The notes beneath the pieces are model-generated. The model saw nothing but the letters and a program-made list of their open reading frames with translations, had not been told where the DNA came from and ran no database searches. Below are positions 11,477 through 34,751 of a stretch of DNA of 64,000 nucleotides, piece after piece. The stretch lies in contig JAZLDI010000008.1 of the NCBI GenBank assembly GCA_045614665.1, forward strand, positions 1,084-65,083, read 5' to 3'. This stretch comes from Candidatus Enterousia sp. (lineage in GTDB: Bacteria; Pseudomonadota; Alphaproteobacteria; Rs-D84). Made by a program: the position numbers and the translations under genes. Each line of letters starts with the position of its first letter. The first letter of the stretch is position 1.

Positions 11477-13252
11477 TTATTCGTGTTTTAACAAACTTTG
11501 TACCGCCAATGGAAAATCGGAACTGTTCGCTAAATAAGAACCACTGACTAATAAATCCGCCCCTGCCCCCCAGCACATTTGTGCCGTCTTGTCATTTATT
11601 CCACCATCAACCGATATCAAGAATTTTAATCCATACTTTTTACGTGTCGCTGCCAACACCGAAATCTTGTGTAAACAATCTGGTCTAAAATCTTGGCCCG
11701 CCGCGCCCGGCACAACCGTCATAACCATCACTTCATCCAAATCACGCAAAACATCTTTTAAAATCGTCACCGACGAATCTGGATGCAACGCAATCCCCAC
11801 GCGTTTTCCGGCATTTTTCACCACACGCACCGCATTACGCACCCCTGATGTATTTGTTGATAAAATCACCGTATCTGCCCCGGCTTTGATTGCATCAGAT
11901 GCCCACACAGCGGGACTTTCCGTCATCAAGTGCACATGCAAATGCGCATCCGTATGTGTTCTGATAAATTTAATAAAATCAATACTGCCCGCGACCCTAT
12001 CAACATAGAACCCGTCCATAATATCAACGTGAATCATTGATATTCCACCCGCTTTGAACAAAGAATAAGTCTCTGGTCGCTTCATATTAAAGCACATAGA
12101 ACTTGGCAAAATTGGGATAAATTTCGGTTTTGCGGTCTTCTTCTGACGTTTAAATATAGCACCGACACGCGCCATAACCGAATTTATTTTTGCATGGCGT
12201 GCCAAATAGGCACTACGCTTGGCTGCAAACATATTCCAAACATATTGCGACAACGCACGAACAGTTGCATCGCCCCCCATAACCTCGGTTGGGACGGCAA
12301 ATGTATTTTCAATTAAATCACGCACACCGCCCATTTCGGCCCCACCACCAGTCAAGACAATGCGCCCCGGCCGATATTTTTCAAATGCCCCGTTCCCAGA
12401 ATCACGAATTTTACCAACAACATCCAAAACTACCGGCAACACAATGTCATTTACATCACCACGTGAAAATCCATATGCGGTATCAGCGGGCGTAAACCTA
12501 TCCATTTCCTTTGGTATTAAATCTGCAACCGCTTGTTTAATACGCGTAGCCTCTTCAAAATCTATATTGAACGCACTGGCAATATCGCTGGTTATCTTTG
12601 TGCCACCAACCGGAACTTTGATATGCCATACCGGCCCCCGATCCGTCCAAATCGACGCAGATGTAAATTCCGCCCCAAAATCTATGAACATAGTATTTTG
12701 TTTTGGCTTTCTAAAAGCGGCATTTTGCACAAATTGTGGGTCAAAAAACGCGCGCGGTTCAATATACGCGTGATGCATTAACGAATGCAGATTATCCAGT
12801 CTGTCTAATCTATAAAATATTGCCCCAAACAAAGCTACAAGTTGTCGGTCAACACTGCCCACTGGATTCAACATATCACGTGCCCCGGGCCGACTGTACG
12901 CCAATGGCACTATATGAATTGGATGAAAATCATTCGGTGGCAAAATTTGCGATACAAGGTTACGTACATCTGATTGATTGATTTTATGTTCCCCTGACCA
13001 AGTTGTACTCTTAACTGTCGCCTGATAAATCGATGGACCAAAATTTCCAGTAATATATGCCGAATCCAGATTTCTGCCAATTTGCTTTTCCAGTGCCGAT
13101 ACAACCGATTTTATGGCAAAAATAGTATCAAAACTGTCCACAGAAAAAACAGCAGACTTAGCAATATTTCCAGATTTAATATGATGCGCAATACCACGAA
13201 CGCCCGCCGTGCCAATATCCAGACACAAAAAACAAGAATCCATCATATTCAT
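11477..13252 (-). CDS. ftsA: FtsA-like cell division protein fused to a ribulose-phosphate 3-epimerase (Rpe) domain
   Basis: A single 591-aa ORF. Residues 1-~370 carry FtsA actin-fold motifs (LDIGTAGVRG, FIDFGAEFT, VPVGGTKITSDIA, IVLTGGGAEM). Residues ~377-591 carry Rpe motifs (HVDIMDG, HVHLM, MTVVPGAAGQDF, VDGG, GADLLVSGS). Confidence 0.8.
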   Translation of the reverse strand: MNMMDSCFLCLDIGTAGVRGIAHHIKSGNIAKSAVFSVDSFDTIFAIKSVVSALEKQIGRNLDSAYITGNFGPSIYQATVKSTTWSGEHKINQSDVRNLVSQILPPNDFHPIHIVPLAYSRPGARDMLNPVGSVDRQLVALFGAIFYRLDRLDNLHSLMHHAYIEPRAFFDPQFVQNAAFRKPKQNTMFIDFGAEFTSASIWTDRGPVWHIKVPVGGTKITSDIASAFNIDFEEATRIKQAVADLIPKEMDRFTPADTAYGFSRGDVNDIVLPVVLDVVGKIRDSGNGAFEKYRPGRIVLTGGGAEMGGVRDLIENTFAVPTEVMGGDATVRALSQYVWNMFAAKRSAYLARHAKINSVMARVGAIFKRQKKTAKPKFIPILPSSMCFNMKRPETYSLFKAGGISMIHVDIMDGFYVDRVAGSIDFIKFIRTHTDAHLHVHLMTESPAVWASDAIKAGADTVILSTNTSGVRNAVRVVKNAGKRVGIALHPDSSVTILKDVLRDLDEVMVMTVVPGAAGQDFRPDCLHKISVLAATRKKYGLKFLISVDGGINDKTAQMCWGAGADLLVSGSYLANSSDFPLAVQSLLKHE

Positions 13253-27019: not shown

Positions 27020-27128
27020 AAGCGAAGTGCATTATAACAGACTTTTTTCGGATTGCAAGTGACAATTTTTACTGGGATTTTGTTCGTGTTTACAATATTT
27101 GGTCTTTTTTATAAATTGTATATGTGTC

Positions 27129-27692
27129 ATGAAATATCTCATCTGTATTTTTGTTGGTATTTTTATCACGACAAATGTCGCACGGGCCGAATGCATAAAT
27201 CCGTTCTTGAACGGATATCAAAATCAAGTCGCTTTGAATGTTGGAACTGGGGTAAATGATGGCTTCTTAATCCCGTCCCCGTCCGAGTTTGTACCGTTTA
27301 ATATCTTGCATTTGCAATATTCACAAAATATGACTTTTTTTGGTATCCAGGCACGTAAATCACTAAATGTTATTCAAACAATAGGTTGGGGTAAAAAGTA
27401 TGGGTGGAATTGGGAAAAATATACAATTCCAATCGCAATGCTTAGTATAGATGTGTCGCCATTTTATGGGGATGATTGGTATACATTTATTGGTGTTGGT
27501 TCTGGATTCCAGGCACAGCAAAATAAACGTATTGGCTCAAAATTGATTTTTAGTTTTAAACTGGGGCTGGGGTACAGATTATCTGAATGCACATCGATTG
27601 AGGTTTTTGCACATCATTTTTCAAATGGAAATACTGCGCCTGAAAATAATTCTTATGCATTCTATGGTGCAGGGTTAACATACAGTTTTTAA
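27129..27692 (+). CDS. acyloxyacyl hydrolase / lipid A 3-O-deacylase (PagL-like) outer membrane protein
   Basis: It has a signal peptide and a small beta-barrel. The C-terminal HHFSNGN motif (His-x-Ser-Asn-Gly) is typical of the PagL family, and the last residue is F. Confidence 0.6.
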   Translation: MKYLICIFVGIFITTNVARAECINPFLNGYQNQVALNVGTGVNDGFLIPSPSEFVPFNILHLQYSQNMTFFGIQARKSLNVIQTIGWGKKYGWNWEKYTIPIAMLSIDVSPFYGDDWYTFIGVGSGFQAQQNKRIGSKLIFSFKLGLGYRLSECTSIEVFAHHFSNGNTAPENNSYAFYGAGLTYSF

Positions 27693-27702
27693 AAGAATTT
27701 TA

Positions 27703-27730
27703 TTGCAAAAAATATTTATCAAATTATAAT
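27703..27730 (+). promoter_or_regulatory. sigma70-like promoter of the aspS leader
   Basis: The sequence is TTGCAA, a 16-nt spacer, then TATAAT. Confidence 0.55.
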
Positions 27731-27750
27731 CTGTGTCAGAATTTTGTGTG

Positions 27751-27848
27751 TGAATGCGATGACGTGACTGACAACCATTGAGCATTCATAGACATTAGTA
27801 AAGTTATAAGCCAGGGTGGCACCGCGCTGAAAAATCTTAGCGCCCCTG
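27751..27848 (+). promoter_or_regulatory. T-box-like riboswitch (short Stem I with Asp codons plus canonical T-box antiterminator)
   Basis: AAGCCAGGGTGGCACCGCG lies at 27808-27826. Helix A1 is CAGGG/CCCTG, the 7-nt bulge is TGGCACC, and helix A2 is GCGC/GCGC. Upstream stem TGAATGC/GCATTCA closes a loop holding GAT, GAC, GAC and GAC-A. Confidence 0.6.
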
Positions 27849-27922
27849 ATGATTTAACAAGAAATGGGTGCCGAAATTCCAATTAAATTTTTGCGCCCGA
27901 AACAAAAAAAAGGGACCAAAAA

Positions 27923-29692
27923 ATGTTATCTTTGAAATCAAAGTTCAGAACACATACGTGTGGTGAATTAAATGCAAAAAATGTCGGCGAGGTGGTAACA
28001 CTGTCCGGATGGGTTCATCGTAAACGTGACCATGGGGCATTGTTGTTTATTGACCTGCGTGATAATTACGGTATTACACAGATTGTTTTTGATGGCGGTA
28101 ATGAGGCACTTGAACGCATTCGTCCAGAATCTGTGATTAAAGTTGTTGGAAACGTTGTTGCACGTGATGCGTCGGCGGTTAATGATAAAATCCCAACGGG
28201 TGAAATTGAAATTCAAGCAACCTCATTCGAAGTTCTGACCAATTCAGAGGTTTTGCCATTCCAGGTATTCGGTGAAGACGAAGTTGGCGAAGAATTGCGT
28301 TATAAATATCGCTTCTTGGACTTGCGTCGTGAAAAATTACACAACACTATTTTGACGCGCAATAAAATGATGAAATGGTTGCGTGATAAAATGTGGGATT
28401 TAGGTTTCTCGGAATTCCAGACACCGGTTTTAACCGCATCCAGCCCAGAGGGTGCACGTGACTTTATCGTACCATCTCGCTTACATCACGGTAAATTCTA
28501 TGCCCTGCCCCAGGCACCACAGATGTTCAAGCAATTACTGCAAGTGTCGGGTTTTGACCGCTATTTCCAGATTGCACCATGTTTTCGTGATGAAGATTTG
28601 CGTTCAGACAGATTACTGGAATTTTATCAGTTGGATATGGAAATGTCGTTTGTTGACCTGGCTGATATTCAGGCCGTCGGTGATGAAATTATGCCAAATC
28701 TGGTTCGTGAATTTGCACCGGATGCAAATGTATACGCCGAAATTCCACATATCACATTTGATGATGCAATGTTGAAATATGGTTCAGATAAACCAGATTT
28801 ACGTAACCCAATTATTATCCATGACGTGACAGATGTTTTCCGTGGATCTGATTTTGGAATCTTTGCAAACGCAATTGAAAATGGCAGTGTTGTTCGTGCT
28901 ATCCCGGCACCAAACAGTGCAGACAAACCACGTTCTTGGTTTGATAAATTGGGTGAATATGCGGTCAAAGAATTGGGCCTGGGCGGTCTGGGGTACATCG
29001 TATTCGCAGACGAGGCCAAAGGACCCGTTGCCAAGAAACTAGATGCGGCACGCATTGAAAAACTGCATGAAATTGCAGGTGATAATTCATCCCTGTTCTT
29101 TGTTTGCGACAATGTTGAACCTGCATCCAAGGCGGCTGGAAAATTGCGTAATAAATTAGGTGCAGATTTAGGTTTGGTAAATCCACGCGACTTTGCATTC
29201 TGTTGGGTGGAATCATTCCCGTTCTTTGAACCAGACGAAGAACGCGATGGCGCACCAAAGTTTACACACAACCCATTCTCGTTTCCAATGGCGACATTAG
29301 AGGAACTGGACACAAAAAATCCATTTGATATCAAAGCAGCTCAGTTCGATATGGTATTAAATGGTTTGGAAATTTGCAGCGGTGGTTTACGTAACTATAA
29401 CCCAGACATTATGAAGAAGTGTTTTGAAATCGCCGGTTATCCGATTGAGGCGGTTGAAAAGAATTTCAGTGGTCTGTACACTGCGTTCCAATATGGCGCA
29501 CCACCGCACGGCGGATGTGCGTTCGGTATTGACCGATTAGTATCAGAAATTACCGGATTCGGTGACAGTGTACGCGAAGTGGTTGCATTCCCAGCCAACC
29601 AACGCGGACAAGACTTGTTAATGGGCAGTCCGAACGAGGTCACTGAACAACAATTACGTGATGTTCATATCACAATTCGCAAAAAGAACTAA
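27923..29692 (+). CDS. aspS: aspartate--tRNA ligase
   Basis: 589 aa with N-terminal RTHTCGEL. Class II motifs are present (FRDEDLRSDR, GGLRNYN.., FGIDRL). Confidence 0.97.
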   Translation: MLSLKSKFRTHTCGELNAKNVGEVVTLSGWVHRKRDHGALLFIDLRDNYGITQIVFDGGNEALERIRPESVIKVVGNVVARDASAVNDKIPTGEIEIQATSFEVLTNSEVLPFQVFGEDEVGEELRYKYRFLDLRREKLHNTILTRNKMMKWLRDKMWDLGFSEFQTPVLTASSPEGARDFIVPSRLHHGKFYALPQAPQMFKQLLQVSGFDRYFQIAPCFRDEDLRSDRLLEFYQLDMEMSFVDLADIQAVGDEIMPNLVREFAPDANVYAEIPHITFDDAMLKYGSDKPDLRNPIIIHDVTDVFRGSDFGIFANAIENGSVVRAIPAPNSADKPRSWFDKLGEYAVKELGLGGLGYIVFADEAKGPVAKKLDAARIEKLHEIAGDNSSLFFVCDNVEPASKAAGKLRNKLGADLGLVNPRDFAFCWVESFPFFEPDEERDGAPKFTHNPFSFPMATLEELDTKNPFDIKAAQFDMVLNGLEICSGGLRNYNPDIMKKCFEIAGYPIEAVEKNFSGLYTAFQYGAPPHGGCAFGIDRLVSEITGFGDSVREVVAFPANQRGQDLLMGSPNEVTEQQLRDVHITIRKKN

Positions 29693-31328: not shown

Positions 31329-33779
<2,451 letters not shown>

Positions 33780-34677: not shown

Positions 34678-34751
34678 TGGTGCCCTAAGCAAGAATCGGA
34701 CTTGCGACTCGTCCTTACCAAGGACGTGTTTTACCACTAGACTATTAGGGC
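34678..34751 (-). tRNA. tRNA-Thr (anticodon GGT)
   Basis: 74-nt cloverleaf with acceptor GCCCTAA/TTAGGGC and anticodon loop TTGGTAA. The T-arm is GCAAG-TCCGATT-CTTGC, with C at position 55. CCA is encoded. Confidence 0.88.

Follow-up and report, generated by a model that had tools for sequence, protein, structure and literature searches.

A reduced T-box-like leader upstream of aspS in a Candidatus Enterousia-like gut alphaproteobacterium

How much of a T-box can be lost before a leader ceases to sense tRNA? The question is raised by the leader of aspS, the gene for aspartyl-tRNA synthetase (AspRS), in a stretch of 64,000 nt from Candidatus Enterousia sp. (contig JAZLDI010000008.1, positions 1,084 to 65,083; hereafter, the window). 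A preliminary description of this DNA, made from the sequence alone, had proposed an ultrashort, T-box-like leader with Asp-specific features in a proteobacterial-type gene context, and this interpretation is supported as essentially right by the present analysis. As judged from sequence comparison, the leader is very probably a selected, T-box-derived and tRNA-directed element, and it is probably the reduced descendant of a T-box riboswitch that serves as a translational switch for tRNA-Asp/tRNA-Asn. The parts that it retains appear to be the two elements by which a T-box base-pairs with tRNA, namely an ultrashort Stem I with a kink-turn (K-turn) and a specifier, and the bulge of the antiterminator.

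The presumably regulated gene (27923..29692, + strand) encodes a bacterial-type AspRS of 589 aa with tRNA_anti-codon/OB (PF01336), tRNA-synt_2 class II core (PF00152) and GAD (PF02938) domains. Its leader occupies approximately 27737-27922 of the window, and the T-box-derived element spans 27741-27925. Orthologues were collected by a protein-guided scan with one genome per species, which yielded 80 aspS loci; the closest match of AspS came from a Candidatus Enterousia metagenome-assembled genome (MAG; 96% identity). Enterousia is a gut-associated genus classed as Alphaproteobacteria incertae sedis, and the host is, by these matches, a Candidatus Enterousia-like gut alphaproteobacterium, in line with the alphaproteobacterial context noted previously.

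The conserved core of the aspS leader

The T-box sequence lies in AAGCCAGGGTGGCACCGCG at 27808-27826, of which GGGUGGCACCGCG at 27814-26 is the conserved part. As in the Rfam T-box family RF00230, this sequence forms helix A1, a 7-nt bulge and helix A2, and the resulting antiterminator-like domain (27812..27848, + strand) is delineated by both the Rfam alignment and covariation. Helix A1 pairs CAGGG (27812-16) with CCCTG (27844-48), the bulge is UGGCACC (27817-23), and helix A2 pairs GCGC (27824-27) with GCGC (27840-43); in the window, A2 extends to 27824-30 with 27837-43, giving 7 bp that close a 6-nt loop. All 25 aligned leaders agree in the bulge and in the basal 4 bp of A2, whose basal pair is G-C, and A1 covaries, with one pair found as CG:19/UA:5 and the next as AU:17/CG:4/GC:3. 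Directly 5′ of the antiterminator lies a purine-rich linker, AAAGUUAUAA (AAAGUNAUAA; 27800..27809, + strand), whose columns are invariant or nearly so. Within the window, GGGTGGNACCGCG occurs a single time (expected matches at ≤1 mismatch, 0.15), as does the 13-mer GGGTGGCACCGCG. The antiterminator fold drawn in the preliminary description is thus conserved, covaries in A1 and is aligned by the Rfam model; the T-box sequence, A1, the bulge, A2, the TGAATGC/GCATTCA stem and GAC-A were all found where that description had placed them.

Stem I (27746..27795, + strand) was delineated by RNAalifold and by pair counts in the alignment of 25 leaders. From its base upwards, it consists of an outer helix (27746-48 with 27793-95), a covarying C-stem of 7 bp (TGAATGC, 27751-57, with GCATTCA, 27782-88), a K-turn or GA motif recognized by its flank pattern (3-nt bulge GAU at 27758-60; G.A/A.G pairs of 27761-62 with 27780-81), a covarying NC stem of four positions (27763-66 with 27776-79), and a terminal specifier loop of 9 nt, ACUGACAAC (27767..27775), marked by the conservation of its codon positions. 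What had been taken for a 24-nt loop is therefore really the K-turn, the 4-position helix and a 9-nt loop. Compensatory changes occur in 7/7 C-stem pairs and 2/4 NC-stem pairs (e.g., UA:13/CG:12). The K-turn flanks, NNUGA...GA in 36/39 leaders, agree with the base of Stem I in the Rfam T-box consensus, gCgaUGAa...GAGc, so that the K-turn expected of a T-box Stem I is seen in both the sequence pattern and the covarying stems around it.

The proposed specifier is GAC at 27770-72, followed by the purine A27773 and, at 27773-75, by an invariant AAC. Four Asp codons had been counted in the supposed large loop; the last of them does lie at the specifier position, but the other three fall outside the terminal loop. 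Among 39 distinct leaders, loop positions 4-6 read GAC in 27 and AAC in 12, the next base is always A, and position 4 is never a pyrimidine. The specifier codon thus fits the downstream gene and is followed by a purine (GAC-A or AAC-A before aspS), as in T-boxes generally. The Asp specificity proposed earlier holds for the GAC leaders but not for those with AAC, an Asn codon, and the element would be better termed Asp/Asn-specific. The AAC specifier is present in both subtypes of the expression platform (described below), which implies that the G/A switch arose at least twice.

In the protein-guided set, GGTGGCACC stands about 100 nt 5′ of aspS in all 11 loci at 76-96% AspS identity. No such element was found upstream of aspS in the next relatives (60-67% AspS identity), and no T-box core was found upstream of aspS in the other alphaproteobacterial loci (L012-L080), with L057 as the sole exception; a GGTGGNACC-type match in L078 was dismissed because it lies inside a high-GC open reading frame (ORF). 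A metagenome scan with the pattern ACAACC-N25-55-GGGTGGCACCGCG added approximately 30 leaders of the same type. The leader set comprises 39 distinct sequences, of which 25 entered a structure-naive MAFFT alignment and 12, all genome-derived, were folded by RNAalifold. ACAACC is invariant in these 12, which were retrieved via protein and not by a DNA pattern. Altogether, the element is present in 44/44 Enterousia-type aspS loci, each of which carries the GGGTGGCACCGCG core. A search of the window and of about 355 kb of Enterousia-type DNA for further T-box cores (GGTGGNACC) gave only incidental matches in coding regions, such as gyrB.

In the 25-leader alignment, 86.8% of cells pair, vs 37-54% when the partners are slid by 1-3 columns, and the covariation score is 0.435, vs ≤0.158 in the slid controls. 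Compensatory double changes were detected in 15/24 pairs, two of them in A1. The preliminary description had suggested that aspS upstream regions of related genomes be aligned; there, the motif is kept in all 44 loci, and both A1 and the stem covary. It can be regarded as established in silico that the leader is homologous to the T-box core and conserved, that Stem I, A1 and hairpin 3 of the expression platform covary, and that terminators are absent; the element is, on the evidence of these alignments, under purifying selection.

With regard to the tRNA partner, a tRNA-Asn(GUU) gene on an Enterousia-type contig (L161) has the acceptor end ...UGCCCGA-G73-CCA, which is complementary to the bulge UGGC; it is on this tRNA-Asn from a related contig that the pairing of G73 was checked. 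In bacteria, tRNA-Asp generally has G73, and GAC is read by tRNA-Asp(GUC), AAC by tRNA-Asn(GUU). The bulge UGGC could pair with the free G73-C-C-A end of either tRNA. An AAC specifier fits aspS only if the AspRS also charges tRNA-Asn, and the GAC/AAC alternation would make sense if the AspRS of this lineage were non-discriminating and charged tRNA-Asp as well as tRNA-Asn. Such an enzyme is usual in bacteria without AsnRS (PMC4206432). A His in the RDHG motif may mark non-discriminating enzymes; for the sequence determinants of non-discriminating bacterial AspRS, no usable source was found in the literature searched.

Missing domains, known T-boxes and compact relatives

An Rfam scan of the whole window at gathering thresholds returned no T-box and no other cis-regulatory family, and only five tRNAs (Tyr, Gly, Met, Thr and Met). 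The covariance-model comparison suggested earlier does give a match when the leader is scanned permissively (E = 4.6e-4, search space 341 nt), but its 26 bits lie far under the RF00230 gathering score of 93; judged by the refuting condition set there, the lack of any such match, the outcome is borderline. Only the antiterminator (27811-27850) is aligned confidently, with high posterior probability; the alignment skips about 85 of the model's Stem I positions, and its Stem II/III part is spurious. Taken alone, the Rfam match indicates a partial resemblance, and the case therefore rests on the comparative data. Other permissive matches in the leader (mir-186, snR56, etc.) were noise, with E > 0.3.

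The absence of Stem II, IIA/B, Stem III and the distal part of Stem I, which the preliminary description had pointed out, was confirmed. The distal Stem I platform (AG bulge and distal loop) is missing, Stem I ending in its 9-nt loop four pairs above the K-turn. There is likewise no Stem II/S-turn or IIA/B pseudoknot: the 16 nt (27796-27811) between Stem I and A1 hold no conserved helix. The Stem III hairpin (RRRxG-Stem III-AA) is also missing, and its place holds only the purine-rich AAAGUNAUAA (27800-09). In addition, the bulge-proximal A2 pair, G27824-C27843, is G-C in 25/25 leaders, in place of the canonical G.U. Since these domains are missing and the ultrashort class is reported to be all-ileS, the element lies outside every described T-box subclass. 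With a sub-threshold score and four defining features lacking, it falls outside the family as now defined and is best described as a new, minimal variant.

The canonical Firmicutes T-box (RF00230) and the aspS leader share AGGGUGGNACCGCG, the fold of A1, 7-nt bulge and A2, the complementarity of UGGN to tRNA NCCA (predicted for the aspS leader), the K-turn at the base of Stem I, a specifier with a following purine that fits the aminoacyl-tRNA synthetase (aaRS) gene, and the location in an aaRS 5′ leader. The canonical form further possesses a distal Stem I (AG bulge, distal loop and elbow platform), Stem II or IIA/B, Stem III and an intrinsic terminator, none of which occurs in the aspS leader, and G.U at the base of A2, where the aspS leader has G-C; the host here is also alphaproteobacterial. 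In a 2008 survey (Wels et al.), T-boxes were found in 2/125 Proteobacteria, both as deltaproteobacterial leuA leaders (PMC2494555).

The translational ileS T-boxes of Actinobacteria with an ultrashort (US) Stem I resemble the aspS leader in having a Stem I of a K-turn and a short helix, a specifier in or next to the terminal loop, and no elbow platform; they are translational, which for the aspS leader is what we infer. Such US Stem I ileS T-boxes were reportedly described by Sherwood, Grundy and Henkin in 2015 and in structures from Mycobacterium and Nocardia. Members of this class still possess Stem II (S-turn), the IIA/B pseudoknot and Stem III, on which their binding of tRNA depends (PMC7583486), and they have been reported to regulate ileS in all cases (bioRxiv 10.1101/2023.02.28.530422). 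The aspS leader does not belong to it, as it has no Stem II, IIA/B or Stem III and precedes aspS, not ileS. Moreover, the actinobacterial sequestrator uses the 3′ strand of the antisequestrator itself, whereas the aspS leader would interpose a hairpin as a relay.

The glyQS T-boxes are likewise naturally devoid of Stem II and IIA/B and have a short linker from Stem I to the discriminator, but, unlike the aspS leader, they have retained Stem I at full length, including the platform for the tRNA elbow, together with Stem III and a terminator. The dispensability of Stem II in glyQS has been ascribed to the strong GGC:GCC codon-anticodon pairing (PMC7583486), an argument that does not hold for GAC or AAC. 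The NT-box of Clostridium acetobutylicum (Saad et al. 2013) is a T-box of the tRNA-dependent Asn pathway with codons for two tRNAs (PMC4052509). Similarly to the aspS leader, it uses AAC as a specifier, and it is tied to the indirect Asn route (non-discriminating AspRS and GatCAB), as the aspS leader may be. The NT-box is full-size and transcriptional, with overlapping AAC/GAA codons, whereas in the window GAC (27770-72) and AAC (27773-75) are adjacent and, among the aspS leaders, loop position 4 changes between G and A from lineage to lineage.

The T-box database TBDB takes its sequences from Rfam and related sources, and its translational model was run only on Actinobacteria and on class I-detected sequences (PMC7778990); given this construction, elements scoring 12-26 bits would be missed. 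No publication linking T-box riboswitches to Alphaproteobacteria, Patescibacteria or Gram-negative aspS was found in the literature searched.

The pattern scan also found five unrelated compact T-box-like leaders with intact downstream sequence (L183, L184, L189, L196 and L088), 5/5 of which precede a short archaeal-type AspRS gene of about 440 aa. Like the window, they have the K-turn flanks, the loop GAYURACAACC, the spacing, an AAAG-type linker, the core CAGGGUGGCACCGCG...CGCCCCUG and a G-C basal A2 pair, and they lie upstream of an AspRS gene without Stem II or Stem III. Unlike the window, which has no U-tract and an added hairpin 3, they end in classical U-tract terminator hairpins, and they precede archaeal-type AspRS where the window has the bacterial type. 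A taxon was assigned for L183 alone: its protein, which a protein search traced to Candidatus Paceibacterota, has homologues that bear the annotation aspartate--tRNA(Asn) ligase or non-discriminating AspRS. The linker of L183 is near-identical to the Enterousia consensus, and the stretch AAAGUUAYAAAUCAGGG is common to both. Because the relatives were retrieved with a window-derived pattern, the 19 nt that they share with the window are not independent evidence; their gene context, K-turn, 3′ strand and terminators are independent.

A covariance model built from the terminator-type leaders for scoring the window was dismissed as circular on account of the same retrieval pattern. In Rfam scans, L183 reached 12.3 bits (leader alone), and none of these leaders was detected at E ≤ 1e-3 in a pooled scan. 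The compact leader is absent from three intact Patescibacteria aspS upstream regions (L202-L204), one further locus being cut at a contig end; it is therefore not universal there, and its distribution is sporadic. Such compact aspS leaders with terminators, at least one of them from Patescibacteria, apparently had not been described before. L180 is also among the compact terminator-bearing leaders upstream of AspRS.

The exceptional locus L057 comes from a deer-colon MAG labelled Rickettsiales, a gut alphaproteobacterial genome with 53% AspS identity. Its T-box (2831-2975; aspS starts near 2998) scores 49.4 bits and is fuller: Stem II and Stem III are present, as is an F-box-like CCGUCA. Stem I is ultrashort, and the loop region there holds AAC-A (Asn) but lacks GAC. 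As judged by eye, the Shine-Dalgarno (SD) sequence UGGUG complements the bulge CACCA of this T-box, suggestive of direct sequestration. The fold of the L057 leader is no more stable than that of shuffled sequences (z = +0.43).

A candidate translational relay and its rivals

Downstream of the antiterminator, the three short boxes listed previously (GCGCCC at 27840, GGGTGC at 27866 and GCGCCC at 27893) are present. The second of these, box 2, is GGGUGCC(G) (27866..27873, + strand), with near-invariant columns and the core GGUGCC at 27867-72; it is complementary to the bulge GGCACC (27818-23), to the antiterminator 3′ strand GCGCCC (27840-45) and to box 3. In folds of minimum free energy, hairpin 3 (27866..27898, + strand) is formed by GGGUGC (27866-71) with GCGCCC (27893-98, box 3) and by GAAAUU (27873-78) with AAUUUU (27886-91), whereas the RNAalifold consensus fold pairs box 2 with the T-box bulge. 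Box 3 varies (GCGCCC, GGCACC, GACACC, GGUACCC, AGCACC and others) but stays complementary to box 2: among these mutually related leaders, the box 2:box 3 duplex has a mean of -11.5 kcal/mol with own sequences vs -10.2 kcal/mol when orthologues are permuted, and 0/500 permutations were as good. That box 2 is invariant while the box 3 strand varies indicates that box 2 has a second, invariant partner.

Box 3 and the U-run preceding it are also complementary to the SD region (GGGA, 27912-15) and to the A-run before AUG. Constrained folds suggest a candidate sequestering helix (27888..27922, + strand) of UUUUUG (27888-93) with CAAAAA (27917-22) and CCC (27896-98) with GGG (27912-14). The box 3:SD duplex averages -7.7 kcal/mol vs -4.1 kcal/mol for shuffled box 3 (z = -12); vs permuted, related orthologues (-6.9 kcal/mol, 6/500), the signal of co-evolution is weak. 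Box 2, box 3 and SD shift together between the two platform subtypes, GGGUGCC/GGGACC vs UGGUGCC/GG(G)UGU.

All 39 leaders were subjected to constrained partition-function folding. The mean energies of the modelled states are -50.8 kcal/mol for the antiterminator with an open bulge, -49.4 kcal/mol for bulge:box 2 and -45.4 kcal/mol for the terminator-like state, so that the first two are near-isoenergetic on average. Mean modelled SD accessibility is 0.41 in the antiterminator state vs 0.21 in the bulge:box 2 state, and it is higher by >0.1 in the former in 23/39 leaders and lower in 3/39. U-tract terminators are essentially absent from the 39 orthologues (3/39 after box 2, 1/39 after hairpin 3), and no terminator-like site was found between 27000 and 28200 of the window, in line with the preliminary description, which had noted no intrinsic terminator. 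A classical attenuator was rejected, as the terminator-like helix GCGCCC:GGGUGC is the least stable state and there are no terminators. Of the alternative helices once suggested among the three boxes, the 27866:27893 helix covaries; the 27840:27866 helix gives the least stable state modelled.

Leaders of the UGGUGCC-type subclade (e.g., L002) have AAAUCUUA in the A2 loop and its perfect complement, UAAGAUUU, just 3′ of A1, which points to a further alternative hairpin that would disrupt the antiterminator. The corresponding complementarity is weak in the window's own sequence (27830-27839).

A relay that is thermodynamic and translational would fit these observations. Briefly, four boxes would act on translation: the bulge GGCACC, GGUGCC (27867-72), the 3′ strand of hairpin 3, and the SD with the A-run. 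Without uncharged tRNA, box 2 would pair with the bulge or, less favourably, with the antiterminator 3′ strand GCGCCC; either pairing would free box 3 to cover the SD region and the A-run, giving low expression. Uncharged tRNA-Asp or tRNA-Asn would be held by codon-anticodon pairing, and its GCCA end would pair with the bulge and stabilise A1/A2. With the bulge held by tRNA, box 2 could close hairpin 3 with box 3, the ribosome-binding site would open and expression would be high. This specific relay is offered tentatively, doubt being slightly the stronger; that tRNA is bound and its charge sensed, that the relay operates and which way it regulates are all matters that we infer.

Several observations weigh against a tRNA-sensing translational switch. 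In the window's own leader, modelled SD accessibility is the same in both states (0.29 vs 0.33), and even with no ligand the antiterminator state has an advantage of about 4 kcal/mol. The bulge:box 2 pairing is beyond covariation testing because only invariant bases are involved, and the orthologues are mutually related, so that the Wilcoxon and permutation figures overstate independence. The RF00230 match has 26 bits against a gathering score of 93. No tRNA-Asp gene of the lineage was found in the window or in 49 loci, and no gatCAB, AsnRS or other aaRS genes were found among the 20 window ORFs scanned. It has also been reported that an antiterminator alone, deprived of Stem III with its purines, shows no appreciable binding of tRNA (PMC7583486, Zhang 2020 review) and that Stem II becomes essential once Stem I has no elbow-binding platform (PMC7583486); both Stem II and the platform are absent from the aspS leader. 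Finally, the G.U pair is considered the primary steric sensor of the aminoacyl group (PMC7583486), and in the aspS leaders it is G-C.

One rival keeps the T-box origin and the sensing of tRNA and moves the output to transcription or mRNA fate, such as Rho termination or RNase attack in 27899-27922, which is rich in A and unstructured, when hairpin 3 does not form. The closest core relatives do use intrinsic terminators, whose 3′ strand (GGGGUG/GGGGCG) corresponds to box 2, so that box 2 looks like a terminator strand minus the U-tract. In most orthologues, hairpin 3 is succeeded by a conserved (G)AAACAAAA tract, and the unchanged SD accessibility of the window between modelled states would also fit. 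On the other hand, the window has no U-tract and the orthologues have essentially none, the terminator-like helix is the least stable state modelled (mean -45.4 kcal/mol), and box 3 is specifically complementary to the SD region. In addition, the tract downstream is A-rich, whereas typical Rho loading sites are C-rich. On balance, this explanation is unlikely.

Equally unlikely is a T-box relic that no longer senses tRNA and persists as a constitutive structured leader for mRNA stability, tRNA-Thr processing or ribosome standby. The parts that are missing (Stem II, Stem III, distal Stem I and the G.U sensor) are those published as needed for binding or charge discrimination (PMC7583486), the antiterminator with hairpin 3 is already the predicted ground state, and a tRNA-Thr gene abuts the leader in many relatives. 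A purely structural leader would be expected to conserve pairing, not loop and bulge sequence, and it is the putatively tRNA-contacting single-stranded parts that are most conserved here: the bulge is invariant in 25/25 leaders, the core is present in every Enterousia-type locus, and the loop core is conserved with its variable codon position limited to G/A, giving Asp or Asn codons. On unrelated contigs, of which at least one is from another phylum, the same pair of loop and bulge again precedes AspRS genes.

Genes for aaRSs are sometimes autoregulated by tRNA mimicry, as with E. coli thrS, and Stem I might mimic an anticodon arm in an operator for AspRS or another protein. By eye, the loop CUGACAA has the form of an anticodon loop of 7 nt whose central triplet is preceded by U and followed by a purine, but this triplet is the codon GAC/AAC, not the anticodon GUC/GUU, and so is on the wrong strand. 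Mimicry would also leave the T-box bulge, the A1/A2 covariation and the K-turn unexplained, and homology to terminator-type T-boxes favours an RNA-RNA mechanism; it is thus very improbable. Chance likeness to the T-box consensus in an AT-rich intergenic region, which the sub-threshold Rfam score and the 14% of shuffled windows that contain the 13-mer somewhere at one mismatch might suggest, is refuted by the same position of the element in every orthologous locus, with covariation.

A reduced T-box that switches translation in response to tRNA-Asp/tRNA-Asn therefore remains the preferred reading. A bolder composite of it can be formulated: a minimal two-contact T-box (codon-anticodon and NCCA-bulge), in need of neither Stem II, Stem III nor an elbow platform, in which box 2, GGUGCCR, is an internal acceptor-end mimic that competes for the bulge, GAC and the adjacent AAC are read by two tRNAs, a non-discriminating AspRS is tuned in this way, the class has spread between Patescibacteria and gut Alphaproteobacteria, and a terminator has been rewired into a translational relay. 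Taken as a whole, this composite is rather improbable.

According to structural work, the elbow platform or Stem II is needed to hold the tRNA, and Stem III and the G.U pair to read aminoacylation (PMC7583486). A naturally selected T-box that lacks all four parts, conserved across a genus-level clade, would be a test of these structural rules. If tRNA is bound, the element would be the smallest natural tRNA-sensing riboswitch, and either two base-pairing contacts suffice, or the AAAGUNAUAA linker, hairpin 3 or a protein substitutes for the missing parts. The range of T-boxes would be extended to Alphaproteobacteria and Patescibacteria, and the Rfam model and the databases built on it appear blind to the compact class (12-26 bits). 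If the AspRS is non-discriminating, the GAC/AAC alternation would represent a natural case of specifier switching between two substrates of one enzyme. The core of 110 nt may also be an attractive small scaffold for engineered tRNA sensors.

Promoter, neighbouring genes and other features of the window

A promoter-like site, TTGCAA-16 nt-TATAAT (27703..27730, + strand; 10/12 hexamer matches), precedes the leader. It had been singled out in the preliminary description, and it is the top sigma-70-like match on the + strand of the scanned stretch; transcription is predicted to start near 27737. By eye, a comparable -35/-10 pair lies immediately 5′ of Stem I in several orthologues.

Directly 5′ of the promoter is a gene for a PagL-like lipid A 3-O-deacylase (27099-27692; PF09411, E = 9e-9), which fits a host that is a diderm alphaproteobacterium. 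Many relatives have a tRNA-Thr(GGU) gene directly 5′ of the aspS leader, sometimes a few bases from Stem I (L007 2747-2820, L116 2989-3062, L117 3689-3762 and L161 8635-8708, among others), and the leader may thus be co-transcribed with the tRNA and freed by tRNA processing. The tRNA-Thr gene of the window lies at 34678-34751 on the minus strand, about 7 kb from the leader, which is preceded by the PagL-like gene instead.

Two other genes of the window deserve mention. The gyrB gene (31329-33767, minus strand) has a single in-frame TGA at 32319-32321, inside the Toprim region, which splits it into same-frame ORFs of 482 and 319 aa. An error of sequencing or assembly might account for the TGA, as might a strain-level pseudogene or a stop that is recoded or read through; the E. 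coli residue aligned with it is presumably Ser, not Trp or Gly. An ORF of 591 aa (11477-13252, minus strand) is FtsA/PilM-like in its N-terminal part and a ribulose-phosphate 3-epimerase in its C-terminal part, and it may represent a gene fusion or two neighbouring genes joined by a mechanical ORF call.

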